Counted from the first letter of the stretch, positions 16,381-64,000 are shown. The stretch: 64,000 nucleotides of DNA from Nostoc sp. DedSLP01 (GCA_034530875.2 JAVRCJ020000010.1:128001-192000); one strand, 5' to 3'. Translations and numbers: made by a program. The notes: generated by a model from the letters alone, not told the origin.

Positions 16381-17265
16381 CTATTTTGCTAGTACAACTT
16401 CATCAAACGCAGTATTTACAGACACATCCTTCCAAGCATCTAGTTCCGTCTTCACCGATTCTAGTTTGGCGTTAATAGCATTCATTGCATCTTCTCCTAA
16501 CGCCAATCTGAGTGGTGGCTTATCGCTATTAACTGCTTTAATCATTGCCAAAGCTGCTTTTTTGGGATCGCCTGGTTCCTGAAATTCCAATTTTCCATCT
16601 AAGATAGCCTGGGCACCTTGACGCATCTCACCAATTACTGTTTCATAGTCCTGAATTTCATTATCAGATATAACAAGAGAACGCGTCACAAAATCTGTAC
16701 GAAATGCACCAGGTTCAACTATTGTGATTTTAATACCTAGAGGTGCAACTTCCTGAGCTAATGCTTCAGAAATTCCTTCAATGGCAAATTTGGAACCATT
16801 ATAAATTCCCGTACCAGCATAGCCCACAAAGCCACCCACTGATGAAATATTAATGATGTGTCCGCCGCGTTGCTTTCGCATATAAGGTAGTACTGTCCGT
16901 AGCACTTCCAAGACACCAAAAAAGTTTGTTTCAAACTGATGGCGAACTCCTTCATTGCTGACTTCTTCGATTGCTCCTAAAATGCCATATCCAGCATTAT
17001 TAACAAGTACATCAATGCGTCCAAATTTGGTAATTGCTTGTTTTACCGCTTCTTGCACTTCTTCAGGTTTTGTGACATCAAGTTGCACCGTTAATGTATG
17101 TTCTGGAAAGCGTTTTGCTAAATCTTCTATTAACTTTGGATTTCTAGCAGTTAGCACTACAATTTCACCCTGCTCAAGCACTGTTTCTGCTAATGCTCGG
17201 CCAAAGCCTTTTGAAGTACCAGTAATAAACCATACTCGCGTATCTGGAACTGAAGATTTTACCAT
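16381..17265 (-). CDS. Classical SDR oxidoreductase
   Basis: TGTSKGFG, NNAG, ISS and YNGSK (YxxxK intact). Confidence 0.9.
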   Translation of the reverse strand: MVKSSVPDTRVWFITGTSKGFGRALAETVLEQGEIVVLTARNPKLIEDLAKRFPEHTLTVQLDVTKPEEVQEAVKQAITKFGRIDVLVNNAGYGILGAIEEVSNEGVRHQFETNFFGVLEVLRTVLPYMRKQRGGHIINISSVGGFVGYAGTGIYNGSKFAIEGISEALAQEVAPLGIKITIVEPGAFRTDFVTRSLVISDNEIQDYETVIGEMRQGAQAILDGKLEFQEPGDPKKAALAMIKAVNSDKPPLRLALGEDAMNAINAKLESVKTELDAWKDVSVNTAFDEVVLAK

Positions 17266-17324
17266 CAAAATTTCCCCTTACTTTTTTGTTCTGACTTGTG
17301 AATTTTTCTTCAAACACACATCTA

Positions 17325-17549
17325 CTAGATGTTGTCAGATGTTTCCTGCATCTTTTTGCGAAGGCTAAGGGGTCTCATGTCAGTCCAGACTTCTTTGATG
17401 TAATCCAGACATTCTTGCTTCAAACCATTTTTACCAACATCTTTCCAACCAATAGGGTTTTCGCGGTCAGATGGCCAAATGGAATATTGTTCTTCGTGAT
17501 TAACTACAACTTTGTAGATTGTCGTGTCTTCTTTGTCGTCTTGATACAT
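17325..17549 (-). CDS. mbtH: MbtH-like NRPS accessory protein
   Basis: [13 protein letters not shown]...GWK...[17 protein letters not shown]. Confidence 0.96.
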
Positions 17550-17661
17550 AATTGACCTGTTGATTTGAATTAATTAAACTTTTAATTTTGGACAAACTTT
17601 AGTTGATTAAACTGAATAAATACTCAACAAAATATCATTTTTTAATAATTCTTGAATATAT

Positions 17662-19032
17662 CTATTTAGTAACTTCAATTGTTAGAGAATTTAAAGATTG
17701 AAACTCTAAAACTGTTAATATGAATACAATTAACATAAACACAACATCTGCAAACAGCATACCATAATATATGCCTCGGACTGCTGCAAGTTTTGAAAAA
17801 AATAGTACCATCGGTACAGTTAAAATTATACTCCTTAATAAGATTACTATTAACACAGTTTTACCTTTGCCTATAGATAAAAAAAGAGTATTACTGAAGT
17901 ATGCTAAAGGCCATATTGGTATTAAAATAATAAGAATTATAAAATTAATGACATCATTTTCTGTAAAAATAACATCTGGGAGAATTATACTCAAAAATGT
18001 TTTTGGAAAAATTAGTAAAGGTAACCAAATAAATATTGATAAAATGGTTCCAATGATTGCAAAAGTTAAGTATGCTTTTTTGAGTCTTGCATAATTTTGT
18101 GCGCCATAGTTCATGCCAATTATAGGTTGTAATGCTTGGGCAAACCCAATGATAGGAATAAATACAAATGAAGATACTTTTACAGTTGCACCAAAGAAAG
18201 CAATATCAGTACTTTTTCCGTAGTTAGAAATTAAATTAAAAACGACGAAATCTTGTAGCAATATAGTCAATGGATAAAATAATTCTGATATTCCAACAGA
18301 TAAGATTCTACCAATTATGTGCGTGGCGATCGCTGGTTTTTTTAGATTAACTGAAATAGTACTCTTACCCAAAATAAAATAAGTTAAATTTGCAAAGCTA
18401 TAAACAATCATTGCTATAACTGTGGCTATAGCAATACCTTGAGTTCCCCAATGAAATAGATTCGTAAATATATAATTGAGTAAAATATTAACAATAACAA
18501 ACAGCCAGTCAAATACTGTAGTTAATTTAATTTTTCCTTCTGATTTGATGACACGACTGCAAGCTTCCGCGAGGATTAAAAATATTGAACCTAGTACATA
18601 AGTACGAAAATATGTTGTGCCTTCTAAAGCAACTTCACCACTTCCTCCCATCAATACAATTAATTCTTCAGCAAAGCTGTAACCAATAATTGTGATGAGA
18701 AATGAAACTATAACACTCATCACTATTAAATTACTAAATATTTTCGACTGAGTTTTAATATCCCCAGAACCAATCGCACGACTGAGAACAGAAGCAGAAC
18801 CCACCCCAATAGATAAAGCAAATCCATTTATTATGCCTGTAAGTGGCAGTGCAATTGAGATACCAGCCAAAGCATTTTCACCAATGAACCTCCCTGCAAA
18901 TAAAGCATCAATAAAAGTGTTTAAACTTAGCATCAATACTCCCAGAGTACTTGGTATTGATAACTTGAACATCAATTTAATCAGATTACCTTCAAGGATT
19001 TCATTTGTGATTTGAGATTGTTGTGAAGTCAT
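17662..19032 (-). CDS. MATE family efflux transporter
   Basis: 456 aa with about 12 TM segments. Motifs NTFIDALFAGRFIG, NILLNYIF...WGTQGIAIAT and QPIIGMNYGA. Confidence 0.9.
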   Translation of the reverse strand: MTSQQSQITNEILEGNLIKLMFKLSIPSTLGVLMLSLNTFIDALFAGRFIGENALAGISIALPLTGIINGFALSIGVGSASVLSRAIGSGDIKTQSKIFSNLIVMSVIVSFLITIIGYSFAEELIVLMGGSGEVALEGTTYFRTYVLGSIFLILAEACSRVIKSEGKIKLTTVFDWLFVIVNILLNYIFTNLFHWGTQGIAIATVIAMIVYSFANLTYFILGKSTISVNLKKPAIATHIIGRILSVGISELFYPLTILLQDFVVFNLISNYGKSTDIAFFGATVKVSSFVFIPIIGFAQALQPIIGMNYGAQNYARLKKAYLTFAIIGTILSIFIWLPLLIFPKTFLSIILPDVIFTENDVINFIILIILIPIWPLAYFSNTLFLSIGKGKTVLIVILLRSIILTVPMVLFFSKLAAVRGIYYGMLFADVVFMLIVFILTVLEFQSLNSLTIEVTK

Positions 19033-19057
19033 TTTTTAGTTTTCAGTTCGTTACTAT

Positions 19058-20074
19058 TTACTCAACCTTCGCCAAACGGCTAACGCGATACTGCTTCACT
19101 GTTTCTAACTCCATCTCTGTTGCTGAACTAAATGCACTCATCACCTCACCACAAACTTCTACTCTGGCTTCATAAGCACCTGATATACTGTTATCTGGAA
19201 GTGCAAAATCAATCCGAACTTCTGCCCAATTTGCATCGTTTTCCATCGCTAATACTTGGCCAGCTTTCCAATAATTTAGCCAATTCCAACCAGACTGCAT
19301 CCAAATTTCTCGCTCAGCAATTTGCTCAAATTTGTCGAGACCAGTCCATCCTCGATAATATTGGCGCAAACCAGAAACTGAGCTATTTCGCTTCACTAAT
19401 AAATCCAATACATCTACTTCTAAATGTCCCCACAAGCGTCCTTCAGGTAAATCAACTAAAGTAGGGGCAAATTGATGCCCTCCAAAGTGAGTTGTTCGCC
19501 ACACTCGTAATTTTCCTTTAGAAGCAGGAGCATAAACTTTACGTAATTGCCAATATATAGGAGTCCCAAATCTCCCACAAGCAAGGTCAACTTGAGCATG
19601 GGTGCAAACCATTAGTTCGCGAATGTGACTTGTTTGTTGTTGATATTGCTGAAATTCTGATAAATCGTTGGGTTGTTGCATTAACTTCTGAAATATTGCT
19701 GTGACTAAAGCAGCAGCTTTATTTACTGGAACAACAAACTCTTGTTTTTGAAATTCAGCAAACAGTTTTGCAGGTCGATAATAGTAGAAAATGCGGGTCA
19801 AGCTGGGATGAGAATACTCTCGGTCAGGAGCAATTAGCATCGGTTTTAACTTGATTCCATGCTGAAAAATTAACTCTTGAAATAAACCCATCAATGGCTT
19901 GGTAATCGGATTTTCTGCAAATATTTCTGGCGACCAAGGTTGTGGAACTTCCATAATCAACCAATACTCCCAAGTATCTGCTGTCCCAATTGGATCTTCT
20001 TCATTAGCTTTAGAAACTAACGAACAAAATCGGCAGTTAATAGGGTTAATTTGGTCAATATTTTTAGTTAGCAT
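19058..20074 (-). CDS. Sucrase/ferredoxin-like (Apd1/Aim32-type 2Fe-2S) protein
   Basis: EDPIGTA, LMVCTHAQVDLACGRFG, HFGGHQFAPT and YRGW. Confidence 0.88.
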   Translation of the reverse strand: MLTKNIDQINPINCRFCSLVSKANEEDPIGTADTWEYWLIMEVPQPWSPEIFAENPITKPLMGLFQELIFQHGIKLKPMLIAPDREYSHPSLTRIFYYYRPAKLFAEFQKQEFVVPVNKAAALVTAIFQKLMQQPNDLSEFQQYQQQTSHIRELMVCTHAQVDLACGRFGTPIYWQLRKVYAPASKGKLRVWRTTHFGGHQFAPTLVDLPEGRLWGHLEVDVLDLLVKRNSSVSGLRQYYRGWTGLDKFEQIAEREIWMQSGWNWLNYWKAGQVLAMENDANWAEVRIDFALPDNSISGAYEARVEVCGEVMSAFSSATEMELETVKQYRVSRLAKVE

Positions 20075-20113
20075 TTTTCTATTTATATTATAGTTCTATT
20101 AAAAAATCAAATA

Positions 20114-21001
20114 CTAATCAAGTTCCATTCCTTTTCGTATATCCCGATAAAAATTGTCATAAAAGTATTGGTGCGGCACTAATCTTTTATACAAAGCATA
20201 TAGAGTAAGGCGCAATGATGATTGCACGACAAAATATTGTCTTTTGGGTTTGCGAGCTTCCAAAGCCTGCAAAATTGTATTTGCCACTTTTTCCGCTGGT
20301 AACCCTGCACTGCGATTATCTTCTACCGAACCTTGCATATATATTTTGTAATTCTTGCCATATATCGCTTTAATTTCTGGTGACATATCCGCTAATGTTT
20401 GTTGATAACTAGCTTCTATTTTGTCAGCCTGTTCTGGTGTTATTATTCCTGCTGGCAATATGGAAATAACTTCAACTCCAGTAGAAAATAATTCCATTCG
20501 TAAAGAATCAGTAATGGCTTCGATCGCAAATTTTGAAGCAGATAACATACTTCTATAAGGTAGAGCTAATCTACCACAAATTGCACTGATATTAAGGATG
20601 CGACCTTTGGCTTGTCTAATCAATGGTAAGAATGCTTGCGTCACAGCAATTTGCCCAACAACATTAACTTCAAAATTAAATCTAACGTCATCTATTGGAA
20701 TACATTCCAAAGGCCCATCTACGGCTACAACTGCGTTATTAATTAAGGCGAATAATCCTTCTTCACCAACTGCAAGCGAAACAAACTCTGTAGCAGATTT
20801 AATTTCTTCCGCTTTTGTGATGTCCATAATAATTGGTGTCAAATTACCAGATGCAGCTTGCTTTAGTGAGTGTGCATCTTTCTCGCTGCGGACTCCAGCA
20901 AAAACGCGATATCCTTGTTTGGCTAATAAAAGTGCAGTTGCTCGACCTAAACCTGTGGATGTTCCTGTGATAACGACTGCACCTTTATGACTCTGATTCA
21001 T
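20114..21001 (-). CDS. SDR-fold protein with a degenerate active site
   Basis: TGTSTGLG Rossmann motif is present, but the protein has NNAV, ISAI and MLSASK where NNAG, ISS and YxxxK are expected. Confidence 0.85.
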   Translation of the reverse strand: MNQSHKGAVVITGTSTGLGRATALLLAKQGYRVFAGVRSEKDAHSLKQAASGNLTPIIMDITKAEEIKSATEFVSLAVGEEGLFALINNAVVAVDGPLECIPIDDVRFNFEVNVVGQIAVTQAFLPLIRQAKGRILNISAICGRLALPYRSMLSASKFAIEAITDSLRMELFSTGVEVISILPAGIITPEQADKIEASYQQTLADMSPEIKAIYGKNYKIYMQGSVEDNRSAGLPAEKVANTILQALEARKPKRQYFVVQSSLRLTLYALYKRLVPHQYFYDNFYRDIRKGMELD

Positions 21002-21061
21002 ACCTATTTACTCCCAGAATAAATGTATTTTTATACTCGAAAAGCTATATTTAGAACTAGT

Positions 21062-22480: not shown

Positions 22481-22631
22481 AAATCTTGTTTATTTCTATG
22501 ATTTTTCAGAAGTCAAAATTGAAAAGTAAAACAGGTTTTAGTCACGGTTTTTAAATTTATCATGTGTAATTGAGGAAGTTGAAATCGACTGTATATATCA
22601 ATAGAATAAACTGAAAACTAAAATCCAAAAG

Positions 22632-24014
22632 CTAAACTAAACCAGCAGCTAATGGTTGCAACTTTCCTCGGTCTTGTCGGCGACTACGCATCACCATTTT
22701 CACGCCGCTTGCAGGAGAACAAATCAAACCGGCAAATTTGGGACGTTCTGGCCGCTGACTAACTAGCTCTAATTGATAGCGTGAAAGAATCGTTGCTAAT
22801 ATAAGTTTCATTTCAAATAAAGCAAAATTTGCACCAATGCACACGCGAGAACCGCCACCAAATGGCAGAAATTCGTAAGGAGAAAATTGTTTTTCTAAAA
22901 AGCGTTCTGGCTGAAATTCTTTTGGATTTGGATACAAATCATCTCGCTGATGGGTTGAATAAATATTGCCAATAACTATTGTTCCGGGATGTAGTTCGTA
23001 CCCCATTATTTGAATGGGAGATTCTACTAATCTGGGAAATGTAAATAATTGAGTTGGATAAACCCGTAAAACTTCATTACATACAGCATTTAAATACGGT
23101 AGTGTAACAATACTCATTGGATCTGGATTTTCACCCAGACTATCAATTTCTTTGAGTAATTTTTCTCTAACATCTTTTAAACGATGAATCCAATACAAAG
23201 CCCAACTAATAGCAGTTCCAGAAGCATCACCAGATGCAAATATAGGTGATATTAAAAGGTCGCGTACTTCTTCATTACTTAATGCTTGACCTGCTTCATC
23301 ACGAGCCAATAACAAATCGCTAAGTATATCGGTATGTGAAAAATTTGGTTGCTGGCGACGTTCTTCAACCTCAGTCAATAATAATTGAAAAAGTTCTCCC
23401 CGCAGGTGCAGGAAATATCCTTGTGGACTCCAGCTCCCTAAATCTTTTTCTCCAAAAAGATTGCTAATAATTTTAAGTATAAGAGATTGGCGATCGCGTT
23501 TAAGCAAAGATGCAAATAAATCTTTAATTTTATTGTAACGCTCTCCTTCTGCCAAACCTATTACACGCTCTATACCCACTTTAAAAGTAATATCTTCAAT
23601 AACCGGGTATGCAACAAAAGGCTTGCCAATTAGTTGTTTACTCATCATCTTTTCTGTGAGTTCGCAGATACCTTGTCCGCAAGCTTGCATCCGCGCTCCA
23701 TGAAAAGCTTGCATTAAAAGTTTACGCCGATTTTTGTGAATTAAACCATCAAGTTGCAGAACTCCTTGGTTTCCTGTAATAAAAGCAAAGTCTTCGTTTA
23801 ATGCACCCCTAGCTATAATTTCTTTAGTATTTGTGAAAATTTCTTTTATGCCTAAAGGATTGCTAATATAAACAATTGGTGTATAACCAGACATGATAGT
23901 GACGATATCACCATAACGCTTGTCAATAGCATCCAAATAGCTAAAAGGATTAGACTCAAATTGTAGACCTAACAGCCAAAATGGTGTTTTTGGCCCTGGG
24001 GGTAGTTTTATCAT
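22632..24014 (-). CDS. Cytochrome P450 (CYP110-like) with a non-canonical I-helix
   Basis: EVLR, PERF and FGGGSRVCIG. The I-helix reads ASGDASG. The start overlaps the NRPS stop (ATGA). Confidence 0.93.
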   Translation of the reverse strand: MIKLPPGPKTPFWLLGLQFESNPFSYLDAIDKRYGDIVTIMSGYTPIVYISNPLGIKEIFTNTKEIIARGALNEDFAFITGNQGVLQLDGLIHKNRRKLLMQAFHGARMQACGQGICELTEKMMSKQLIGKPFVAYPVIEDITFKVGIERVIGLAEGERYNKIKDLFASLLKRDRQSLILKIISNLFGEKDLGSWSPQGYFLHLRGELFQLLLTEVEERRQQPNFSHTDILSDLLLARDEAGQALSNEEVRDLLISPIFASGDASGTAISWALYWIHRLKDVREKLLKEIDSLGENPDPMSIVTLPYLNAVCNEVLRVYPTQLFTFPRLVESPIQIMGYELHPGTIVIGNIYSTHQRDDLYPNPKEFQPERFLEKQFSPYEFLPFGGGSRVCIGANFALFEMKLILATILSRYQLELVSQRPERPKFAGLICSPASGVKMVMRSRRQDRGKLQPLAAGLV

Positions 24015-28120: not shown

Positions 28121-28155
28121 TGATAGTATTTAATGAGAAGTTAAAGATATTTTGC

Positions 28156-28238
28156 ACGCAGAGACGCGGAGGCGCAGAGAGGAGGGAGAGGAAAGATTTT
28201 CTTTTCCCACTCCTTACTCCCTACTCCCCACTCCCTAC
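28156..28238. repeat. Short-repeat cluster (cgcagag/cgcggag units and CCCCACT-like 7-mers)
   Basis: acgcagagacgcggaggcgcagagagg followed by cccactc/cttactc/cctactc/cccactc/cctac. A related inverted unit (ctctccgcgactctgcgt) occurs near 36774-36791. Confidence 0.55.
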
Positions 28239-28994
28239 ATTTAGAGAGGCTTTTTGACAAACAAAGCAAGCTATGTCTTCGCTTTCTCCAAAGTCTCTGG
28301 TGTTATAGTAATTAAATTGGTTGAAGCCGGCATCTTTTAAAGCTGATTCAACTTCTGCTAAAAAGTGATCTTTTCTTAACCAAACGGTGTCCGAACGCTG
28401 CCAGTTTTTATCTATTAGTTCAAATCCTGTGACTTTAATTTCCCAAAGCCTGTCTTCGGGTTTGTAGTAGAATAACTCTATTAATGAACCGCGATCGCTA
28501 ATATTGACAATATTAAAATTGTTGTTCTGAGCAGCTTCATGTAGCCAGTCTGTTATAGGGATATTGAACACAAATACACCGCCATCCTTAAGTGCGGTAT
28601 ATACGTTTTTGAATGCTGCTTTCAAATCTTCTTTGTTATGAATGAAATGAAAAACATCATTGGCTAAAGCAGCATCAAAGATAGGTGGTAAATGAAACTG
28701 ACGTATATCGCTAAGGATAAATTCACTTTCAGGCGCGTTTTTTCTAGCGTAGTTTAGCATACCTTCAGAAGCATCTATTCCAGTAACTTTATATTTTCTG
28801 ATGTTAAGCTGTTGCGCTAAATATCCCGAACCGCAACCAAGTTCAAGAATATGGCTTTCTGGAAAAAGTTGTGATAACAATATTTGGTCTAAAGCAGGTA
28901 ATATACCTTGTACTAAAACTTCAGGTGTATTCTTGAATTCGTTCTGTAATCTAGCGATGGGTTCATAGTTGGGCAAGGTATTTAGTAAAGACAT
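28221..28994 (-). CDS. Class I SAM-dependent methyltransferase
   Basis: ILELGCGSG, GIDASEGML, SDIR and LKDGGVFVF. Confidence 0.9.
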   Translation of the reverse strand: MSLLNTLPNYEPIARLQNEFKNTPEVLVQGILPALDQILLSQLFPESHILELGCGSGYLAQQLNIRKYKVTGIDASEGMLNYARKNAPESEFILSDIRQFHLPPIFDAALANDVFHFIHNKEDLKAAFKNVYTALKDGGVFVFNIPITDWLHEAAQNNNFNIVNISDRGSLIELFYYKPEDRLWEIKVTGFELIDKNWQRSDTVWLRKDHFLAEVESALKDAGFNQFNYYNTRDFGESEDIACFVCQKASLNVGSGE

Positions 28995-29055
28995 AGACTA
29001 TTTTTCCTGTTGTTGGCTAAAGTTTTGAATGAAATACTTTATGCTTGAAACTTTA

Positions 29056-32283: not shown

Positions 32284-32316
32284 GACTTGATTAACCAGAT
32301 AAATTAAATTTGTGTT

Positions 32317-36738: not shown

Positions 36739-36805
36739 CTTTTTTCCCAATAACTACACATACTCTTGCCTTCCTCTCCGCGACTCTGCGTAAGATAAAA
36801 GCTTC

Positions 36806-38461: not shown

Positions 38462-38496
38462 TTTATACCCCACAAAGGATTTATGCTTTTGACTCT

Positions 38497-45951: not shown

Positions 45952-45999
45952 GATTTCCCCCGATCGTCAAATGCTTGCTAAGTTAGCTAGTATGCGAAT

Positions 46000-47256: not shown

Positions 47257-47295
47257 AAAATTGCTGGGGCTTGAATGACAAATCGATTATGTCCT

Positions 47296-48177: not shown

Positions 48178-48188
48178 GTTTGAATACC

Positions 48189-54343: not shown

Positions 54344-54357
54344 GACTTATTAATTCT

Positions 54358-57300
54358 TTAATTATTTTCAAATAATTTTATTTTTTGCAAACGTTTTCTC
54401 TGTTGCGCTTTCCCAGATAAAATTTTCTCTGTTTCGATATCACTGTCTTGTAAAGGTACGGTTTTATTTGCAGATGAACTTAAATATTCTGCTAAAGAAT
54501 TGATGGTGGGATATCTAAACAAATCAAGAGTTGATAGTTCTGCCTTTAATATTTCCTGTAACTGGCTGTGAACTGTAACTAAAAGTAATGAATGACCGCC
54601 AATTTCAAAGAAATTATCATGAATGCCTATCTTTTCAAGATTCAAAGCTTGCTGCCAAACAGAGGCTATTGTTTTTTCAATCTCAGTTTGTGGAACCGCA
54701 TAAGCAACTTCTAATTCTGGGCGTAGACCATTCGGAATTGGCAATGCTCGACGATCTACTTTGCCATTGGATGTGAGTGGAAACGCTTCTAATATCATAA
54801 ATGCTGTTGGCATCATGTGGTCAAGCAATTTATTTTGTAAGAAGCGTCGCAATTCAGAAATTGTTAGTGTTTTGTCTGAATGAAGAGTTATATAAGCGAT
54901 TAAATTTTGATTTCCTGGCTTATCCTCCCGCACGATCGCCACACTTGCAGATACAGATGGATGCTGATTGATAACTCCTTCAATTTCTCCTAATTCAACA
55001 CGGAAACCTCGGATTTTTATTTGGTTGTCAATTCTCCCGATATATTCAATATCTCCACTTGCTAGAAAGCGAACTAAATCGCCTGTTTTGTAAAGGCGAT
55101 CGCCTTCTTGTTTGCTAAATGGATTGGGAATAAATTTTAAAGCTGTTAATTCAGGTTGATTCAAATAACCCCTAGCTAATCCCAGTCCACCAATGTGCAA
55201 TTCACCTACTACACCTGTTGGTACTGGTTGTAAGTATTTGTCTAAAATGTACAACTGAGTATTAGCGATGGGTTTACCAATGGGTATGGAACCTAAAGTA
55301 TATTTCCCGACTGGAACTTCATAAATACAGCAGCCTACCACCGTTTCTGTAGGGCCGTATTCGTTGATTAACATCGTATCTGGGGCTACATCTTGCCAGA
55401 AAGTTATACTTTCAGCTAATAAGTTTTCTCCACCAATAATAAAAGCTCTAGTTTTATTTGCTATCTCTTCTTGAGATAACTGTTGTTTCAACAAATCTAA
55501 GTGCGCGGGCGTGATTTTCACCAAGCTTAAATTCGAGCTTTTCTTTAAAGCTTGAGAAAGTGTTTCAATTCCTTGTTCTTCTGGTAATAATTCTGCTGTG
55601 CGGCCAACTAATAAAGGCGATAACAAACTGGTAATTGTTAAGTCAAAACCCAGAGGTGAATGAACTACAGTTCCTACTCCTTGTTCTACTGCATATCTTT
55701 GGGTAGCCCAAGTGAGGTAATTAACTAATCCTTGATGAGGAATCAGAGTTCCTTTCGGTTTGCCAGTAGAACCGGAAGTGTAAATAATATAAGCTAAATT
55801 TAACTCGGTTGTTGTAGTAATTAAATTCTCAATTTTTTGTTGACTTATAGCTTGCCAATCGCTATCGATACAAATGGCTTTAATTTCATTTGTAGCGAAA
55901 TCTGCCATTAAACGCTGTTGAGTCAGCAGGATTGGTATTTGAGAATCATTGATAATAAAAGCTTTTCTTTCTGAAGGATAGCTTGGGTCAATTGGTATGT
56001 ATGCACCGCCAGCTTTCAAGATGCCTAAAAGTGCAATTAACATTAAAGGCGATCGCTCTAGACAAATCCCCACCATAACATCTGGTTTTATGCCTAATTG
56101 CTGTAGGTAATGCGCTAGCTGGTTAGCACGAGTGTTTAATTCTTGGTAGGTTAGTTGCTGATTTTGATAAATAACAGCAATGTTATCTGAGGTGCGATCG
56201 CATTGAGCTTCAAACCAATGATGAATGCATTTATATTGTAGCTCTGATGTTTGAGTATTATTAAATGCAATTAACAGTTGTTCTCGCTCTTGTTCGCTGA
56301 GTATATCCAACCGCGAAATCTCTACAGAGGGATTGTCAATAACACTGAGTAACAAACTTTGCCACTGACTTGCTAAACGTTGAATATCTTCTTTATGGAA
56401 ATGTTTGGCATCATAGTGAAATTCTACTTGAACTAAATCATTTTGTCTGCGAACACAAGAAAGCTTTAGTTTAAATCTGTCAAAGCAGACGTAAGATTGA
56501 TAAATTGAAAATGCTACTTGATGAGCAGAATAATTAGTAACTGTTTCCTCAAACTCATAACAAAATGGTAAAACTAGCTCTTCTATATTATCTTTAGCTG
56601 TTTTGGCAAATACGTTCCAACTAAAGCTATCTTGCCATTTCAGTGTTTCATCTGTTAACTCTTTAACCTGCACTAAGCGATCGCTAAATGTATAATTATC
56701 TTTCAGGTCAGAAACAAGCGGTAAATATTTGCTAAATAAACCTAGTGCTGTTTTTAATTCTTCATAGCTGCGACCATCACAGCCTACACCTATAATTAAC
56801 TTTGATTGACCAGTAAGACGCCAAAGTAAAATTTGCCAACAAGTAAGGAAAAAGATATCTATTGAGACTTGGGATTTTTGGATAATTTCTTCAATTTTAG
56901 TAAGTAAATTTTTGGGAATCGCTAAGCTAATAACTTGAGGTTCAAATTCTGATTCTTCAGAAAAGCAATTCTCAAAAGCAAGCTTTAAATTATCCAGAGT
57001 TGAAAAATCTACTTTCTGCCAGTATTTTGTTCTGGTTGTAGTTTCTTCTGCCTCCAGTAATTCATTTTGCCAGGTAGCAATATCAGCATATTGTAGTGGT
57101 TCTTCATCTATTTCTATTTCTATATTTTGTAAGCAGGCAGTATAATATTGGCTAATTTCAGTAACTATATTTTTGAATGTTTTAAAATCCGTACACAGAG
57201 ATGGCAAATTTATAAATAAAATATACTTATTTGCTGAAAAATTTACTAAAACTATCTTTAATAAGTGATTTTCGCCTAATTTAGATGACTCTTGCCTGAT

Positions 57301-57612
57301 TTTATCGAAAAGGGTTTCTATCTCTATATTGTGAGGAGATTGACTTTCTAAATCATACTCATTTAAAAAAACATTAGTATGATTATTTATTACCTGAATA
57401 GGGATTTTTAACCCAGGTTGGCGATAAAAACTTGTGCGAAGAACTTCGTTCCTAGCAATAATTTTATCTAACGCTTGTTTCAATATATCTACTTGTAAAT
57501 TTCCCTCAATGAGAATACCACATTGATTTCGATAGAAATTACCACCTTGCTGTACTAACCAAAGGCGCTTTTGTTGAGGAGATAGTGGGAAACCCTGAAT
57601 TTTTTCTTGCAT
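54358..57612 (-). CDS. NRPS protein: inactive C (interface-type) - A(Asn predicted) - PCP
   Basis: The C-like domain has LPSLCTD in place of HHxxxDG. By-eye A code DLTKIGEVGK. PCP GGHS. Confidence 0.9.
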   Translation of the reverse strand: MQEKIQGFPLSPQQKRLWLVQQGGNFYRNQCGILIEGNLQVDILKQALDKIIARNEVLRTSFYRQPGLKIPIQVINNHTNVFLNEYDLESQSPHNIEIETLFDKIRQESSKLGENHLLKIVLVNFSANKYILFINLPSLCTDFKTFKNIVTEISQYYTACLQNIEIEIDEEPLQYADIATWQNELLEAEETTTRTKYWQKVDFSTLDNLKLAFENCFSEESEFEPQVISLAIPKNLLTKIEEIIQKSQVSIDIFFLTCWQILLWRLTGQSKLIIGVGCDGRSYEELKTALGLFSKYLPLVSDLKDNYTFSDRLVQVKELTDETLKWQDSFSWNVFAKTAKDNIEELVLPFCYEFEETVTNYSAHQVAFSIYQSYVCFDRFKLKLSCVRRQNDLVQVEFHYDAKHFHKEDIQRLASQWQSLLLSVIDNPSVEISRLDILSEQEREQLLIAFNNTQTSELQYKCIHHWFEAQCDRTSDNIAVIYQNQQLTYQELNTRANQLAHYLQQLGIKPDVMVGICLERSPLMLIALLGILKAGGAYIPIDPSYPSERKAFIINDSQIPILLTQQRLMADFATNEIKAICIDSDWQAISQQKIENLITTTTELNLAYIIYTSGSTGKPKGTLIPHQGLVNYLTWATQRYAVEQGVGTVVHSPLGFDLTITSLLSPLLVGRTAELLPEEQGIETLSQALKKSSNLSLVKITPAHLDLLKQQLSQEEIANKTRAFIIGGENLLAESITFWQDVAPDTMLINEYGPTETVVGCCIYEVPVGKYTLGSIPIGKPIANTQLYILDKYLQPVPTGVVGELHIGGLGLARGYLNQPELTALKFIPNPFSKQEGDRLYKTGDLVRFLASGDIEYIGRIDNQIKIRGFRVELGEIEGVINQHPSVSASVAIVREDKPGNQNLIAYITLHSDKTLTISELRRFLQNKLLDHMMPTAFMILEAFPLTSNGKVDRRALPIPNGLRPELEVAYAVPQTEIEKTIASVWQQALNLEKIGIHDNFFEIGGHSLLLVTVHSQLQEILKAELSTLDLFRYPTINSLAEYLSSSANKTVPLQDSDIETEKILSGKAQQRKRLQKIKLFENN

Positions 57613-57639
57613 TTTTTCTATCCAAGCCTATACAAAATC

Positions 57640-58686
57640 TTAATTTTTACTAAAACTTTTCAGTTCGCCCATCGCAACAAAAAGCTTACGTTCTCCCACA
57701 TAAGGATTGCGGGCATGAGCAGTTAATACGTTATCTAGTAATAATATGTCTCCTTGTTTCCAAGGAAAACATACTTCTAATTTCTGATATACTTCACAAA
57801 TTTCTTGCATTGTAGAGTCTGAAATTATAGTACCATCACCGTAATAACAATTGCGTGGTAAATCTTCTTCTTTAAAAGTTGACACTAGCGATTCGCGGAT
57901 TTGTGTTTCTAAACAAGCTAAATGCCAATGTTGGGCTTGATTAAACCAAGAAAGTTCGCCTGTTTGAGGATGTTTAACTACAGCTGGGCGAATAGAAATA
58001 GTTCTTAAGCCACCATCTTTTCTCCATTCAAAATCTATGAAATTATTTCGACAAATATTTTCTACCTGTGCTTTGCTTTGAGTTTGAAAAACTGTTTGCC
58101 AGTCAAGCCCTAACCCATTTCTATAATTACGGACATACATAACTTGTTTTTCAACAAATTGTTCCCTAATTTTGGGTTTTATCAGTTGAAATACTTTACG
58201 ACTATCAACTATTGGAGTTTCTCCTCCTTGCTGTGCGGGTTGACAACAGCCGAACAAAATTTTTGCAGGCCATCGATGGTTAAAAGAATTTTCGTTGTGC
58301 CACAACAACTTCTTATCAGCAGGATAAAAAACAGGAGTATAAACTTGACCGCTGAGAGTTTCGCGGGGATGTTCGCCATTTTCTTTAAATAATTCCGAGC
58401 AAACGGCTAAAGAAAATCTTTCAAATGCAGCTGCTGTAGTAATATTAAATCCTTTAAAAAGGATAGCACCATATTTAATTAAATTTGTATCTATAAATTC
58501 TCGATTTGCTTGCGCCCAATCTGCAATATCAACATCTGATACAGATGGTTTGATAACCAACGGTAGGGTTTGCTCGTCTCCAAATTTATCTATTTTGATT
58601 AATTCAGATTCTAAATTAATAGATTTTCTACTAATTTTATGGAATTTTTCCTTGAAATTAGAATTGTTGATTTTTATTTCTTTCAT
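57640..58686 (-). CDS. TauD/SyrP-like Fe(II)/2OG beta-hydroxylase
   Basis: YGAILFKGF, WHNENS (HxE), GGETPIVD, WFNQAQHWH and DNVLTAHARNPY. Confidence 0.9.
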   Translation of the reverse strand: MKEIKINNSNFKEKFHKISRKSINLESELIKIDKFGDEQTLPLVIKPSVSDVDIADWAQANREFIDTNLIKYGAILFKGFNITTAAAFERFSLAVCSELFKENGEHPRETLSGQVYTPVFYPADKKLLWHNENSFNHRWPAKILFGCCQPAQQGGETPIVDSRKVFQLIKPKIREQFVEKQVMYVRNYRNGLGLDWQTVFQTQSKAQVENICRNNFIDFEWRKDGGLRTISIRPAVVKHPQTGELSWFNQAQHWHLACLETQIRESLVSTFKEEDLPRNCYYGDGTIISDSTMQEICEVYQKLEVCFPWKQGDILLLDNVLTAHARNPYVGERKLFVAMGELKSFSKN

Positions 58687-58690
58687 TTTA

Positions 58691-61600
58691 TTATTCAACT
58701 TCAGTTACTATCTCAATTACTTTTCGCTTAACTCTACTTAATTTTTGTTGATGTTTCTCTTTTCGCTTTTCTTCTTGATTCAACTGATATTCTTTATCTG
58801 CTTTGATAATAATTTTTTCTAGTTCGTTTAAATTTATATGAGGATTAGCAACAATTTGAGACAAGATTAGCTCAAAATTATTTACTAATCGGCTTGTGCT
58901 ACTAGCATCAAATAAATCTTTGTTATATTTCAATAACCCAACTATTCCTTGCTCTGTATCGTTTAATTCTAGAAGTAGATCGAATCTTGTTACCGTATTT
59001 TCTAAAACATCCAAACTAGTCAAAGTCAAATCTGAAAGTACCAAAGGATGTGTAGGAGTATTTTGGAGGATAAATTTAACCTGAAATAAAGGAGTTTGGC
59101 TGAAGTCTCTTTTAGGATTAAGAGCAGTAACTAGTTGTTCAAATGGTAAATCTTGGTGAGTATATGCTTCTAGGCAAACTTTACGTATGTGTTGCAAAAA
59201 ATCGGTAAAATTAGGGTTGCCGTATAAGCTACTACGTAACACTAATTGATTAACAAAAAAACCAATTAAACTCTCTATTTCTATTTGATTTCGGTTAGCT
59301 ATATCAGTACCAACAACAATATCTTTATCACCTGTATACCAAGATAATAAAACTTTAAACGTTCCAAGTAACGTCATAAATAACGTCGTACCTAGACTGT
59401 TACTTAGCTTTTTAATTTCTTGGGATAATGTGTGAGACAGTATTAAAGTTTGTCTCCCTTCCAGAAATGTTTTCGCTTCGCCAACTTGAGGAATTGTAGG
59501 TAATTGTAAAACTGGTAAATTCTCTCCTAATTGTTTTTTCCAATATGTAACTAAGGTATCCAATAACTCACCCTGTAAGTACTTTCTTTGCCAAGCGGCA
59601 AAGTCTGCATACTGGATATTTATCTCTGGAAGCGGTGAAGGCAGATCGTGAGAAAAAGCTTCATAAAGTGCTGACAGTTCTCGAATAAGTACTCCTTCTG
59701 ACCAGCCATCAAAGATAATATGATGCATAGTCACTAATAAAATATGTTTCCTAGCTTCCAAGCGTAAAAGAGTTAGCCTTAACAATGGAGCTTGTGTTAA
59801 ATCAAACGGTTGTTGGTAATTTGCTAGTCTTATAGCTTGTATTTGTGTTTCATGCTCGCTGTCAGGTAAATGTCCTAAATCTACTATTGTTAGGGGTATC
59901 TTTAAAGCAGAAGCAATGATTTGGGCCGGTTGACCATTTACAATCTGTAAGGATGTTCGTAAAATTTCATGTCTGCGTACTATTTCATTAATACTTTTCT
60001 CTAAAGCTTTGACATTGAGTAAGCCTTCTAACAGCACTGCACTAGAACCATTGTAAATATATGATTTTGGATCTAGTTGATGTAAAAACCACAATCTCTG
60101 CTGTGCAAAAGATAGCGGTAATTCTATCTCTCGGGAAACTCGTTCAATTGGTGGCAGTGAATTAAATATTAACTGTTTATCTTCGATATTTTTGGATAAT
60201 TTTGCTATTGTCGGCGATTCAAAAATTCGGCGCAACGGTAACTCGATATCAAAATTTTTATTAATCCGAGATATAACTTGGGTTGCTAAGAGTGAGTGTC
60301 CGCCCAATTCAAAAAAGTTGTCGTTGATTCCTAACTTTTCTAAGTCAAGTACTTGCATCCAAATCATCGCCAGTTGTTTTTCGATGGCGGTTTGAGGTGC
60401 AACAAAGTTGTCTGCAAATTCTGAAAGTATTGTATCAAGCGCAGGTAGGGCTTTTCGGTCTACTTTACCATTTGGTGTAAGTGGAAGTGTTTCTAAGATG
60501 ACAAAATTTGTTGGCATCATGTAGCTTGGCAACTTTGACTCCAAAAAGCTACGGACTTGTGAAATTATTAATTTTTGTTCGTTTTCAGCAACTAAATAAG
60601 CGACTATTCTTTGAGAATCTACTGCATCTTTGCGTACTATAACTACAGCTTGTTGAACTCCAGAGTGTTGGTTGAGGAGTGCTTCAATTTCTTGTAATTC
60701 AATACGAAAACCACGAACTTTGACTTGATTATCAATACGACCGATATATTCGATTTCTCCATTTGGTAAATAGCGGGCTAAATCTCCTGTTTTATACAAA
60801 CGCCCAGGTTTTTGACTAAATGGATTTGGTATAAAATTCTGTGCCGTCAACTGTGGACGGTTAAAATAACCTCGTGCAAGTCCATCCCCACCAATATGCA
60901 ATTGACCTGGTACACCCACAGGAACCAACCGATCGTATTCGTCTAAAATGTAAAATTGCGTATTAGCGATCGCACCACTAATCGATATAGTCCTATTGTC
61001 AGTTTCTACCTGAGATGCTGCCGACCAAATAGTAGTTTCTGTGGGGCCGTACATATTCCACAAAGACCCACACCGATGCAATAATTGATTGGCTAACTGT
61101 TCAGGTAAAGCTTCTCCACCACAAAGAATTTTTAATTCCTCGTTACCACTCCAGCCTGCTGTTAAAAGTAGTTGCCAAGTCGCCGGTGTTGCTTGCATAA
61201 CTGTCGCTTTGGAATCAGTTATTTTTGCAGACAATTCAATTCCATCAGCAGCTACTTCGCGGCTCACAATTACCACACGACCACCAACTATGATTGGTAG
61301 AAAAAGTTCTAACGCTGCAATATCAAAGGAATATGTTGTAACTGCAACTAATGTATCTTCCTGAGTTAAACCTGGCGTTTCTTTCATGGAGTACAAAAAG
61401 TTGCTTAAAGCACTGTGAGGAATTTGTACGCCTTTTGGTTTGCCTGTTGAACCAGAGGTATAGATGACATAAGCTAGGTTGTCAAGAGAAAGTTTGGATA
61501 ATAAATTCTCTTGATTTTCTTGGGCAATGTTGTGCCAATCTGCATCTAAACAAATGATTTTAGCTTCATTGTGTGGTATTGCTCCTAAAAGTGATGTTTG

Positions 61601-63415
61601 AGTTAGTAATACTGGGGCTTGAGTTTCTTCTAAAATAAATGCTAATCGCTCAATTGGATAACTCGGGTCTAGTGGAATATATGCTCCGCCTGCTTTGAGG
61701 ATTCCCAACAGCCCGATTAGCATATTTAGGGAACGCTCTACACAAATCCCCACCAATACCTCTGGTTTTACTCCCAGTTGTTGTAAATAATGCCCTAGTT
61801 GATTTGTTCTATTGTTGAGTTCGCGGTAGGTTAATTGTTGGTCTTCAAACACCACCGCTACAGCATCGGGTGTTTTTTCTACTTGCGCTTCAAATAACTC
61901 ATGAATGCACTGTTGAGCATATTCAACTTCTGTATCATTCCACTCCACAAGCAATAGCTGTCGCTCAATATCTGTTAACAGTGGTAACTCTGATAAAAGC
62001 TGCTTTGGATTAGTAACAATTCCTTCTAGCAAAGTCTGCAAATGTCCGAGCATTCTTTGTATAGAGCTTTCATCAAATAAATCAGTGTTGTATTCTAAAT
62101 TCCCTAATAAACCATGAATAGTTTCAGTTAAATATAGAGTTAGATCTAACTTGGCAGTATCGCTATTGCTTTCTAAGAAATTTAAAGTTAAACCAGGCAA
62201 CTCTAAGGCAGATATCGGCGCATTCTGAAGCACAAACATCACTTGAAATAGTGGTGTATGACTTAAGTCTCGCTGTGGTTGCAGTTCTTCAACTAACAAC
62301 TCAAAAGGCAAATCTTGATGGGCGTAAGCTCCTAAAGCTACTTCCCGCACTCGTTTTAGTAACTCTTCAAAGCTGGGATTTCCTGCTAAGTTAGTCCGCA
62401 ATACTAAGGTATTGACAAAAACTCCAATTAACCCTTCTATTTCTGCTCTGTTACGGTTAGCGATGGGCGAACCGACAACAATATCTTCGCTGCCTGTGTA
62501 ACGCCATAATAATGTTTGGAAAGCTGCCAATAGAGTTATAAATAATGTACTTCCTTGTTGTCTGCTGAATTTATTTAAGGAAAAAGAGAGTTTATCCGAT
62601 AGTTTGAATGAGTAAGTCGAACCGCGATAAGTTTGAATTGCTGGTCTTGGACGGTCAGTAGGTAATTCTAATACTTTTGGCGCATTCTTTAACTGCTCAA
62701 GCCAATAAGATAGTTGAGTTTTGAGTACTTCTGTTTGCAGCCATTGTCGTTGCCAAGCTGCGAAGTCTACATACTGTATTGGTAGCGCAGGTAATGGTGA
62801 GGGCTGTCCATTACAAAAAGCTTGATAAAGTGTTGCCAACTCCCGCGCTAGTACATCGATTGACCAACCATCAGAGACGATATGGTGCATTGTCAATAAT
62901 AAGATGTGTTCTTGTTGATCGAGACGTAATAGTTTCACTCTCAGCAGTAAGTCGCTTTTGAGATTGAAAGGTTTTTGTGCTTCTTGAGTAGCTTGTTTTT
63001 TGACTTCTGCTTCTTGTCGATCTAAAGATAAATCGCTAATATCGAGTATTGGTAATATTAAAGATATCGCTTCCGAAATTACAGCGATCGCCTGTCCTTC
63101 TTTTGTTTCAAAATTTGTTCGCAGGGCTTCATGGCGGTTGATAATTTCGTTAAAACTTTGTTCTAGCGCCTTAACATTCAATTGCCCCTCTAGGCGAACA
63201 GCAGCAGGCATATTGTAAAAGGGACTATCTGGTTCTAATTGAGCGAGGAAGTATAAGCGTTCTTGAGCGAATGAGAGTTTATAAAAATCATTCTCTACGA
63301 TACGAAGAATAGTTCCAATTTTTGAAGTGTTTATCCCCTTTTTTTGGAGTAGCAGCTTAAAAAGCTCTTGTTTTTCTGAGGGAAAATTACCTCTATGTGT
63401 CGATGATTCAGCCAT
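58691..63415 (-). CDS. NRPS C-A(Gly predicted)-PCP-C
   Basis: C1 HHIVSDG. By-eye A code DILQLGMIWK. PCP GGHS. C2 HHIIFDG. Confidence 0.93.
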   Translation of the reverse strand: MAESSTHRGNFPSEKQELFKLLLQKKGINTSKIGTILRIVENDFYKLSFAQERLYFLAQLEPDSPFYNMPAAVRLEGQLNVKALEQSFNEIINRHEALRTNFETKEGQAIAVISEAISLILPILDISDLSLDRQEAEVKKQATQEAQKPFNLKSDLLLRVKLLRLDQQEHILLLTMHHIVSDGWSIDVLARELATLYQAFCNGQPSPLPALPIQYVDFAAWQRQWLQTEVLKTQLSYWLEQLKNAPKVLELPTDRPRPAIQTYRGSTYSFKLSDKLSFSLNKFSRQQGSTLFITLLAAFQTLLWRYTGSEDIVVGSPIANRNRAEIEGLIGVFVNTLVLRTNLAGNPSFEELLKRVREVALGAYAHQDLPFELLVEELQPQRDLSHTPLFQVMFVLQNAPISALELPGLTLNFLESNSDTAKLDLTLYLTETIHGLLGNLEYNTDLFDESSIQRMLGHLQTLLEGIVTNPKQLLSELPLLTDIERQLLLVEWNDTEVEYAQQCIHELFEAQVEKTPDAVAVVFEDQQLTYRELNNRTNQLGHYLQQLGVKPEVLVGICVERSLNMLIGLLGILKAGGAYIPLDPSYPIERLAFILEETQAPVLLTQTSLLGAIPHNEAKIICLDADWHNIAQENQENLLSKLSLDNLAYVIYTSGSTGKPKGVQIPHSALSNFLYSMKETPGLTQEDTLVAVTTYSFDIAALELFLPIIVGGRVVIVSREVAADGIELSAKITDSKATVMQATPATWQLLLTAGWSGNEELKILCGGEALPEQLANQLLHRCGSLWNMYGPTETTIWSAASQVETDNRTISISGAIANTQFYILDEYDRLVPVGVPGQLHIGGDGLARGYFNRPQLTAQNFIPNPFSQKPGRLYKTGDLARYLPNGEIEYIGRIDNQVKVRGFRIELQEIEALLNQHSGVQQAVVIVRKDAVDSQRIVAYLVAENEQKLIISQVRSFLESKLPSYMMPTNFVILETLPLTPNGKVDRKALPALDTILSEFADNFVAPQTAIEKQLAMIWMQVLDLEKLGINDNFFELGGHSLLATQVISRINKNFDIELPLRRIFESPTIAKLSKNIEDKQLIFNSLPPIERVSREIELPLSFAQQRLWFLHQLDPKSYIYNGSSAVLLEGLLNVKALEKSINEIVRRHEILRTSLQIVNGQPAQIIASALKIPLTIVDLGHLPDSEHETQIQAIRLANYQQPFDLTQAPLLRLTLLRLEARKHILLVTMHHIIFDGWSEGVLIRELSALYEAFSHDLPSPLPEINIQYADFAAWQRKYLQGELLDTLVTYWKKQLGENLPVLQLPTIPQVGEAKTFLEGRQTLILSHTLSQEIKKLSNSLGTTLFMTLLGTFKVLLSWYTGDKDIVVGTDIANRNQIEIESLIGFFVNQLVLRSSLYGNPNFTDFLQHIRKVCLEAYTHQDLPFEQLVTALNPKRDFSQTPLFQVKFILQNTPTHPLVLSDLTLTSLDVLENTVTRFDLLLELNDTEQGIVGLLKYNKDLFDASSTSRLVNNFELILSQIVANPHINLNELEKIIIKADKEYQLNQEEKRKEKHQQKLSRVKRKVIEIVTEVE

Positions 63416-63430
63416 ATTTTAACCTCACTT

Positions 63431-64000
63431 CTACGCCAAGCTTTCAATCAATAAAGCATTCTCTGATAGAGGTTCTATTGGTCGATAATCACGGCTTACA
63501 AGAAACTCCGGTCGGGGATTTGGTACAGGTAAAGGAATATTTTCAATACTGTTGTAAGTAACAATTACAACTGCTCTGTCAAACGGAGATATGTTACTCG
63601 GTGAAGCATGAACAATATTGCTATCAAATAATAGCACTGAGCCTGCCGAAGCTTTGATAGAGCAAATTCCATACTTTAATACTAAATCAGCAACCAACTC
63701 TTTATTAAGAGAATACTTTAGTTTTGCACTAAAATTTGACATCCATGCCGGACGTTCTGTTTTAGCTATAGGCTGATTGCTTGTATTTGGGTCTACAATT
63801 TCAATCATCCCTTCCTTGTGTGAACCAGGAATCACAAATAGTGGTCCGTTAAATTCATTCATGTCATCCAATAATACAAGGGCATTCACCACTCGTGGTG
63901 TTGGCAAACCATCTTCTTTACGCCAAAAAATGTAGTCTTGATGCCATTCCCAAATGTCTCCCCTAAATGCAGCCTTCGCATTAATTTTGAACTGGTAGAT
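63431..64000 (-). CDS. PhyH-family Fe(II)/2OG dioxygenase, L-proline trans-4-hydroxylase-like (5' end outside the window)
   Basis: The frame is open to base 64000 and reads YQFKINAKAAFRGDIWEWHQDYIFWRKEDG...NGPLFVIPGSH...FDSNIVHAS...TYN...PRPEFL. Confidence 0.8.
   Translation of the reverse strand: MYQFKINAKAAFRGDIWEWHQDYIFWRKEDGLPTPRVVNALVLLDDMNEFNGPLFVIPGSHKEGMIEIVDPNTSNQPIAKTERPAWMSNFSAKLKYSLNKELVADLVLKYGICSIKASAGSVLLFDSNIVHASPSNISPFDRAVVIVTYNSIENIPLPVPNPRPEFLVSRDYRPIEPLSENALLIESLA

Follow-up and report, generated by a model that had tools for sequence, protein, structure and literature searches.

In siderophores such as anachelin, alterobactin and crochelin, amino acids are extended by polyketide synthase (PKS) modules with only a ketoreductase (KR), which yields hydroxylated gamma- or epsilon-amino acids; these compounds carry catechol, salicylate, beta-hydroxyaspartate (OH-Asp) or hydroxamate ligands and, to our knowledge, none of them ends in a pyridone derived from beta-alanine (beta-Ala). 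Few cyanobacterial siderophores have been characterised, and the available part of one account singles out the phylum as under-explored and expects unknown chelators in it (PMC12971057). The cyanochelin C pathway, in the accessible portion of its description, combines a fatty acyl-AMP ligase (FAAL) fused to a nonribosomal peptide synthetase (NRPS), a Gly module, condensation (C) domain and TauD enzyme ahead of the next adenylation (A) module, a beta-Ala module, a PvdQ-like acylase, an adjacent transport cassette and FetAB; it chelates via OH-Asp/DHABA, and the description of its nine open reading frames (ORFs) mentions no PKS module (10.64898/2026.07.24.740629). Here we analyse a hybrid NRPS-PKS cluster that fills positions 16381-64000 of a 64,000-nucleotide stretch, the window, from the genome of Nostoc sp. 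DedSLP01 (8.57 Mb, 99.8% complete; G000:C10:128001-192000, or GCA_034530875.2 JAVRCJ020000010.1:128001-192000). The cluster shares this combination of parts with the cyanochelin C pathway but differs in its ligands, as well as in its four PKS modules, an Asn code, a 2,4-diaminobutyrate (Dab) module and an end made of a keto unit, beta-Ala, a thioesterase (TE) with a Cys nucleophile and a cytochrome P450. It apparently is a variant of the hybrid NRPS-PKS siderophore pathways and probably represents a widespread family of siderophores that has not been described and whose head is predicted to be a pyridone.

The counterparts of this terminus are found in the kirromycin and factumycin pathways. 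According to the available parts of the respective studies, KirHI cyclises a beta-ketoacyl-beta-Ala substrate to the kirromycin ring and such cyclases use Cys-Asp-His (PMC4979870), KirD supplies beta-Ala, and deletion of the P450 KirOI leaves 5,6-dihydrokirromycin (PMC5818483). The cluster in the window resembles these systems in the predicted beta-ketoacyl chain placed on beta-Ala in the last module, the aspartate decarboxylase encoded within the cluster, the release enzyme with a Cys nucleophile in a Cys-Asp-His triad, and an adjacent P450 that may serve for C5-C6 desaturation (PMC4979870, PMC5818483). In contrast, the kirromycin system employs a stand-alone Dieckmann cyclase without a TE and makes a long polyketide EF-Tu antibiotic in Streptomyces, whereas here the TE is fused to protein g17, the decarboxylase is of the pyridoxal phosphate-dependent PanP type, the chain would be a polar lipopeptide and the genomic context is that of iron uptake. 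Because the cassette contains each kirromycin counterpart, bar the embedded TE, we infer by analogy that ring closure and desaturation would occur here as well and that the g17 TE works like the kirromycin-type cyclases, without filing it as a member of that group; on this analogy, a pyridone-type terminus is fairly likely.

To assess the conservation of the terminus, the collection of species genomes was searched by TE alignment, which yielded 165 related stretches; the analysis covers the 80 best of these, which were found with patterns that leave out the nucleophile motif and come from genomes that are not independent. In g17, the triad consists of Cys1169 (GHCYG, window 24614-24616), Asp in VVIDA and His in GDHFS. 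Cys replaces Ser as the nucleophile in all 80 related loci (motif G[HF]CYGG), and the three triad residues are invariant in the 56 aligned TEs, whereas among 22 out-of-family TE loci all 19 readable ones have Ser (8 of 8 in-family loci from the same draw have Cys). Among the 77 loci with an upstream PKS, the KR of the last module is degenerate in 70 and absent, as in the window, in 7; the degenerate domains have lost the second Gly of the NADPH motif and the catalytic Lys, with the Tyr kept in 68 of 70, while the KR of the preceding module retains K, S, Y and N in 51 of 51 aligned sequences. These motifs suggest that the last KR is inactive and that the beta-ketone is retained. The beta-Ala code is present in each of the 66 parsed loci (14 of the 80 were unparsed), and the TE gene is directly followed by a P450 gene in all 78 loci with enough downstream DNA. 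The residue that precedes the ketone unit varies (Dab, Gly-type, His-type and beta-Ala codes); because ketone, beta-Ala and Cys are invariant against this variation, the ketone appears to belong with the release step and not with any one internal nucleophile. The initial annotation, which described a plain keto unit followed by beta-Ala and TE, thus had the parts right but overlooked the conserved, putatively ring-closing cassette that they form with the P450.

The constant P450 is the first; a second is found in 46 of the 70 loci with at least 7 kb downstream, which are the base for the counts of accessory genes, and the second P450s fall into two clades in the part of the tree listed. All 128 aligned cluster P450s lack the I-helix acid-Thr pair, which three other P450s of the genome keep. 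A comparison of the core P450 with PDB returned generic P450s only. The clade of g19 is especially divergent at the I-helix (ASNNGATDS/ASRDGATHS). A further NRPS thioesterase of this genome, outside the family, has a Cys nucleophile as well (GWCAG; G000:C53:23918-24772).

Domains were identified with Pfam (E<=1e-5 for dehydratase (DH) and enoylreductase (ER) domains in the four PKS proteins) and families by NCBIfam cut-offs. The 22 co-oriented genes first annotated are confirmed as minus-strand genes, 21 complete and one, the PhyH gene, crossing the window edge; beyond it the cluster continues with about 10 kb of biosynthetic genes, followed by about 14 kb of iron-uptake genes. Apart from the four PKS proteins and the NRPS modules, Pfam identifies two short-chain dehydrogenases/reductases (SDRs), a methyltransferase, a MATE protein, an MbtH protein and a sucrase/ferredoxin-like protein, and the cluster is real and intact-looking. 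The module order proposed at the outset, Gly-Asn-PKS(KR)-Dab-PKS(KR)-PKS(KR)-PKS(no KR)-beta-Ala-TE, agrees with Pfam and with the A-domain codes, which were read by motif from the sequences: DILQLGMIWK (Gly, g04), DLTKIGEVGK (Asn, g06), DIWEMVADDK (Dab-type, g11) and VDWIISLANK (beta-Ala, g17), from which the substrates are predicted. Searches of PDB with the A domains did not settle the substrates (the best match of the Dab A-core, 9n1u, shares its WxE..ADD pattern). The Dab and beta-Ala readings are backed by genes that lie inside the cluster, those for a Dab transaminase (g10; NCBIfam 574.7 bits against a cut-off of 552.2) and a PanP aspartate decarboxylase (g13; a marginal 606.2 against 606.1), from which Dab and beta-Ala, respectively, would be supplied. 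The absence of DH and ER domains (zero matches) and the polar amino-polyol peptide-polyketide backbone hold too, as do the counts of three 2-oxoglutarate oxygenases (PhyH, TauD and Cupin_8) and two P450s. The PhyH gene (g03; best PDB matches 7e01, 231 bits, and the leucine hydroxylase 5nch, 223 bits) adjoins the upstream Pro-clade module, which, rather than the Asn and Dab units, is therefore its probable site of action. From gene position, we propose that g09 is the Dab beta-hydroxylase and, from the layout of C domain, oxygenase and interface-A-T module, that g05 is the Asn beta-hydroxylase. The predicted chain is acyl-D-Ala-(Hyp?)-Gly-[OH-Asn+C2]-[OH-Dab+3xC2]-beta-Ala, and the product would carry a single free amine. 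For the delipidated product of this locus, on the assumption of Hyp, the calculated [M+H]+ is 733.336 for the dihydro form, 731.321 for the pyridone, 747.316 with an added O, 745.336 with an added CH2, 751.347 for the linear acid and 687.294 if PKS3 is skipped; the ring fragments would be 114.055, 112.039 or 128.034, and strains with other front ends would give other values.

Three features had escaped the initial annotation, namely, the Cys nucleophile, the fatty-acyl start and a dead acyltransferase (AT) in PKS3 (g14), where GEGIG replaces GHSIG and a large deletion is present. The same AT defect is found in three relatives (G031, G032 and G022), which also keep the intact ketosynthase (KS) and KR motifs of this protein, so that the module would either need acylation in trans or be skipped. 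The truncated C domain of g11 is kept in relatives (919-932 amino acids), which argues against a pseudogene. PKS1 ends in an epimerase (E) tail (window 49592-49730), and the G022 orthologue (G022:C171:87477-93506) has a full E domain, with 44% identity to that of g01. KS-AT-KR-ACP-E proteins (ACP, acyl carrier protein) also occur in G031, G032 and G029. The identification of g16 as an azetidine-carboxylate synthase was dropped, the PDB search having produced generic methyltransferases only.

In the pathway that we propose, the FAAL would load a fatty acid to give acyl-D-Ala-X-Gly, X being a Pro-like residue that is probably hydroxylated by PhyH; beta-OH-Asn extended by one reduced C2 unit would follow, then beta-OH-Dab extended by two reduced C2 units and an unreduced one, and beta-Ala made by PanP would be joined last. 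A Dieckmann condensation by the Cys-type TE would turn the N-(beta-ketoacyl)-beta-alanyl thioester into a 3-acyl-piperidine-2,4-dione, from which desaturation by the core P450 g18 would give a 3-acyl-4-hydroxy-2-pyridone. The methyltransferase, the SDR and the second P450 would contribute optional decorations, and SDR g20 may reduce the ring-side ketone. After removal of the lipid by the acylase, the product could be exported by the MATE/ABC proteins, and the metal complex re-imported by the adjacent receptor and FecBCDE. Fe(III) would be bound by the tricarbonyl-type site of the acyl-pyridone together with the polyol. Acyl-tetramates bind Fe(III) through a tricarbonyl-type site, and the 1,3-diol-2-amido groups of the OH-Asn and OH-Dab units presumably resemble the Atha of anachelin. 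A more tentative version, which we regard as possible but on the unlikely side, is that the P450s without the Thr desaturate the ring closed by the embedded Cys-TE and, in certain lineages, N-hydroxylate it to a 1,4-dihydroxy-2-pyridone, a hydroxypyridinone-type ligand. The cassette would then be a portable chelator module, so far undescribed for bacterial peptide siderophores, which heterocyst-forming cyanobacteria carry on interchangeable lipopeptide, salicylate or OH-Asp fronts with matching receptors. A fungal precedent for N-hydroxylation by a P450 is TenB, as given in the available part of the source (PMC4979870).

The linkage of a cognate-type TonB receptor and ABC uptake genes, a hallmark of nonribosomal peptide siderophores, is present here. 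The receptor has an AMIN-plug-barrel layout and is divergently oriented from the biosynthetic genes; it is one of two TonB-barrel matches in the genome and the only full-length AMIN-type receptor, and the genome encodes no paralogue of the FecB-type binding protein and a single acylase of this type. A Fur-like palindrome lies 76 bp before the receptor gene, as also in G031, G032 and G022, and a second one precedes the acylase gene, as also in G031 and G032. Compared with G031, the receptor and the binding protein are 72% and 66% identical, versus 88-90% for the permeases and the acylase, a divergence that would be expected of a receptor following a changing ligand. Siderophore cassettes of cyanobacteria are reported to encode ferredoxins that are thioredoxin-like and have sucrolytic relatives (10.64898/2026.07.30.741596), and g21 apparently belongs to the class of CctD from such transport cassettes.

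The family has members in many filamentous cyanobacteria: by record title, nearly all of the 80 loci come from Nostocales genera, with one 'Chroococcales' and one 'Plectonema' record among them. The family TE is present in 17 of the 36 same-genus genomes, with PanP in 16 of these 17 and in none of the 19 TE-negative ones, and among 301 genomes drawn evenly from the phylum, with 8 candidates scored per genome, 8 including the window's own reached at least 396 bits, the next score being 214 (both sets overlap the 80 loci). Carriers include Scytonema hofmannii PCC 7110, Desmonostoc muscorum LEGE 12446 and Calothrix sp. PCC 7716. By a hand count, outside which 13 receptor matches lay, 16 of the 27 other loci of the family have a TonB receptor at most 75 kb away on their contig; in 4 further ones, with split contigs, a receptor is near the PanP gene. 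In G018, G030, G031, G036, G049 and G039, six genomes that have no more than two receptor matches, one of the two lies beside the cluster, with a chance of roughly 4% per genome, a rough estimate given that kin are not independent. G022 has three family TE loci (C171, C93 and C100), and its PanP match on C93 contains an internal stop.

The front ends differ widely. G031, G032 and G022 have g06-g24 in common with the window (67-99% identity at the protein level, with g19 present in G032 alone) and differ in the upstream parts. The trio of Pro-clade A module, Gly module and PhyH is the strain-specific front of the window's cluster; paralogues of the first (61%) and last (62%) occur with a Gly module on contig C1, which suggests a cassette common to two clusters. 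There, at G000:C1:245294-255798, a 3091-residue NRPS with the Pro-clade A domain and the Gly module is followed by the PhyH paralogue. In G030 and G293, interface modules have the Asp-type code DLTKIGHVGK, which the window's cluster lacks; G029 has extender genes, FkbH-like (by eye) and acyl-CoA dehydrogenase, and a carbamoyltransferase; and in G049, G039:C22 and G246 the cluster starts with a salicylate synthase-like gene (above the cut-off in G049, just under it in the other two) and contains up to three beta-Ala modules, which predicts a separate class of product with repeated 5-amino-3-oxopentanoyl units. Because salicylate or OH-Asp modules occur in these variable fronts, the family seems to join one constant end to known chelator-making parts. 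The salicylate-started loci (G049:C4, G039:C22 and G246:C1) also have FabH-like and FkbH-like genes and alternate KR-less PKS with beta-Ala modules. A short FAAL-started member, G039:C5:47869-78388, carries KamA-like radical-SAM, halogenase-like and acylase-like genes, and no PanP, close P450 or receptor was found in the stretch read; it may use another source of beta-amino acid and make a non-siderophore product.

The receptor, the FecBCDE-type genes, the acylase, the Fur-like boxes and the family-wide receptor linkage together favour a siderophore-type function, which we consider likely; that this function and the pyridone-type terminus apply together is a conclusion that we prefer with modest confidence. 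Several observations pull the other way. By Pfam and NCBIfam, the window's cluster contains no recognisable genes for the established chelators (catechol, salicylate, hydroxamate, OH-Asp, OH-His or Dmaq), the module served by TauD having an Asn rather than an Asp code. Taken by itself, the Fur-like signal is weak, two sites having arisen in 10 of 200 shuffles, and for 7 of the 27 loci (G017, G022:C93, G035, G004:C21, G246, G285 and G039:C5) no receptor is nearby among the matches listed. In the distant members G049, G039:C22 and G246 the P450 gene does not directly follow the TE gene, and G039:C5 lacks a close P450 and PanP in the stretch read. Also, a Cys nucleophile alone is no proof of Dieckmann chemistry, and the TE is an embedded type I enzyme rather than a stand-alone KirHI-type cyclase: the closest solved TE by sequence and fold (model pLDDT 82.6) is that of the Acinetobacter C-A-T-TE protein AB3403 (PDB 4zxh; E 5.7e-29, Z 25.9, rmsd 3.2, 260 aligned, its fold rank tied within about 1 with 7r0x and 6ojd), which also has GxCxG but only 28% identity and whose release chemistry lends no direct support for ring closure. 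Stand-alone Dieckmann cyclases were absent from the 38 sequence and top 50 fold matches of the TE, to which they may nevertheless be similar.

An alternative is a siderophore with the same backbone whose Cys-TE releases a linear beta-ketoamide acid, a macrolactone or lactam, or another heterocycle in a reversed topology like that of janustatin, with the metal held by the polyol, OH-Asn and ketoamide or by an N-hydroxy group made by a P450. We consider this outcome unlikely. ObiF1 and SulM are Cys-TEs with beta-lactone or beta-lactam products, and structures of both are among the fold matches; the TE has an ordinary type I fold, and the transport evidence fits just as well. Janustatin, in the available part of its description, resembles the window's cluster in that a PKS followed by a terminal beta-Ala module gives a six-membered N-heterocycle, by another route, which is later oxidised (PMC11755721). 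That system differs in having a trans-AT PKS, a terminus with C-P domains, a reversed topology, desaturases in the place of P450s and a cytotoxic product (PMC11755721). Against the alternative stand the absence from g17 of the second C domain of JanE and the constancy of ketone, beta-Ala and Cys behind a variable residue.

The siderophore and a cationic antibiotic were initially left equally open; the siderophore has gained and the antibiotic is now less likely, given the receptor, the FecBCDE-type genes, the acylase, the receptor linkage and the single free amine predicted. In its broader form, an amino-polyol or elfamycin-like antibiotic or allelochemical, whose acylated prodrug would be activated by the acylase and leave the cell through MATE, with the uptake genes as mere neighbours or in a Trojan-horse or second siderophore role, this reading seems to us quite improbable. 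The OH-Dab+2xC2 unit resembles the galantinic acid of galantin and paenilamicin, which speaks for it, but resembles the Atha of the siderophore anachelin as well. The pyridone terminus is known from antibiotics, as stated in the available part of the source (PMC5818483), and some family loci are without a receptor among the matches listed; receptor linkage nevertheless persists over very different front ends and genera, two-receptor genomes included. Elfamycin identity was rejected, the four PKS modules lacking DH and ER and the cluster lacking a long polyene, tetrahydrofuran or goldinonic-acid scaffold. The uptake system could also be accounted for by the lone IucA/IucC gene of the genome, whose product might use the same receptor; against this, no schizokinen precursor or receptor genes were found near it among ORFs of at least 150 amino acids. 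This synthetase gene (G000:C16:145595-147463) lies beside an RND permease.

It is very improbable that the product or cluster is already known or described elsewhere (MIBiG, subscription journals or the supplement of a 2021 cyanochelin survey), as might be suspected from the presence of the family in well-studied strains and from the members with OH-Asp modules and acylases, which could appear in 'cyanochelin-like' lists. As first noted, no characterised pathway matches: none of the 120 homologues listed, nor any in a second listing, bears a pathway name or named product, and the literature search, with MIBiG, most subscription papers and bioRxiv supplements outside its scope, found no account of the cluster or of a cyanobacterial pyridone siderophore. 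The gene sets of cyanochelins B and C, fatuamide and the Nostoc punctiforme PKS4 locus differ from that of the window. Cyanochelin identity was rejected: a FAAL-initiated line, an AMIN-TonB receptor cassette and a presumably CcsQ-like acylase are present, but there is a single TauD/interface module, with an Asn code, instead of the pair of OH-Asp modules that the available part of the definition calls for (PMC12628792). PKS4 likewise combines a large NRPS-PKS with TauD enzymes, an acylase and a TonB receptor and is upregulated with iron-stress markers, as far as the accessible portion of the study goes; the proteins detected there (R3418-R3452, detected proteins only) include no P450 or PanP and do include a separate thioesterase, an aldo/keto reductase, FkbH and a glycosyltransferase (PMC11890772), so that identity was provisionally rejected as probably wrong. 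Fatuamide A was rejected as well, its available description containing no beta-Ala, P450 or decarboxylase (PMC11877528).

Since the family occurs in cultured reference strains and in roughly half of the genomes sampled from the genus, it could provide a main iron route of nitrogen-fixing soil and symbiotic cyanobacteria. If the pyridone siderophore is real, it would add to bacterial peptide siderophores a pyridone ligand, an unusual metal grip for bacteria, along with an embedded TE for six-membered rings made by Dieckmann condensation, a P450 clade without the conserved I-helix Thr and a natural case of front-end swapping accompanied by receptor divergence. Were the portable-chelator version to hold, this would be among the commonest siderophore types of the genus, and members like the one in the window could escape detection rules based on known chelators. 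The pyridone prediction is sharp and cheap to test.

Table 1. Genes and sites of the cluster and its iron-uptake neighbourhood. Plain positions are those of the window; the others are contig positions. Fractions refer to the 70 related loci with at least 7 kb downstream unless stated otherwise; the name FetAB-like is our assumption.
Feature	Position	Strand	Remark
g24 SDR oxidoreductase	16381..17268	-	present in 36/70
g23 MbtH-like protein	17325..17549	-	
g22 MATE exporter	17662..19032	-	present in 64/70
g21 sucrase/ferredoxin-like protein	19058..20074	-	present in 51/70
g20 SDR	20114..21001	-	present in 53/70
g19 second, optional P450	21062..22480	-	I-helix ASNNGATDS, without usual acid-Thr pair
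g18 core P450, directly after TE gene	22632..24014	-	I-helix SGDAS
g17 C-A(beta-Ala)-T-TE	24011..28120	-	terminal module
g16 SAM methyltransferase	28221..28994	-	upstream of TE gene in 47/77 loci
g15 PKS4 KS-AT(malonyl, HAFH)-ACP, without KR	29056..32283	-	
g14 PKS3 KS-AT(dead)-KR-ACP	32317..36750	-	
g13 PanP-type aspartate 1-decarboxylase	36806..38473	-	
g12 PKS2 KS-AT-KR-ACP	38497..43164	-	
g11 half-C-A(Dab)-T	43186..45951	-	
g10 diaminobutyrate-2-oxoglutarate transaminase	46000..47256	-	
g09 Cupin_8/JmjC oxygenase	47296..48213	-	between split C and A(Dab)
g08 stand-alone C domain	48189..49592	-	HHIIIDG; 44% to post-epimerase C of g02
g07 PKS1 KS-AT-KR-ACP	49592..54343	-	E-domain tail at end
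g06 interface-type C (LPSLCTD)-A(Asn)-T	54358..57612	-	
g05 TauD oxygenase	57640..58698	-	fused to Gly-module protein in G031, G032, G022
g04 C-A(Gly)-T-C	58691..63415	-	
g03 PhyH-family hydroxylase, 3' part	63431..64000	-	whole gene G000:C10:191431-192273
g02 C-A(Pro clade, DAHITTHVVK)-T	G000:C10:192374-195814	-	
g01 FAAL-ACP-C-A(Ala, DLFNNALTYK)-T-E	G000:C10:195693-202361	-	
Fur-like box	G000:C10:203310-203328		
AMIN-TonB siderophore receptor	G000:C10:203386-206235	+	TIGR01783 465 against cut-off 223.5
FecB-type protein	G000:C10:206239-207201	+	
ABC exporter and FecE/D/C-type genes	G000:C10:207364-212192	-	
Fur-like box	G000:C10:212570-212588		
PvdQ-like Ntn acylase	G000:C10:212793-214883	+	
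FetAB-like pair	G000:C10:215163-216640	+	

On the left, the cluster is bounded by genes for apolipoprotein N-acyltransferase and gyrase/topoisomerase subunit A (window 11254-15454), a region that partly overlaps a segment at 12-16 kb with a GC content of 0.46-0.47 versus 0.37 overall. Further left, inspection by eye points to a NadR-like and PnuC-like pair and a ModA-like binding protein (window 2411-6104), and three further KS domains, at G000:C10:106944-118521, 10-21 kb left of the window start, belong to a separate PKS locus.

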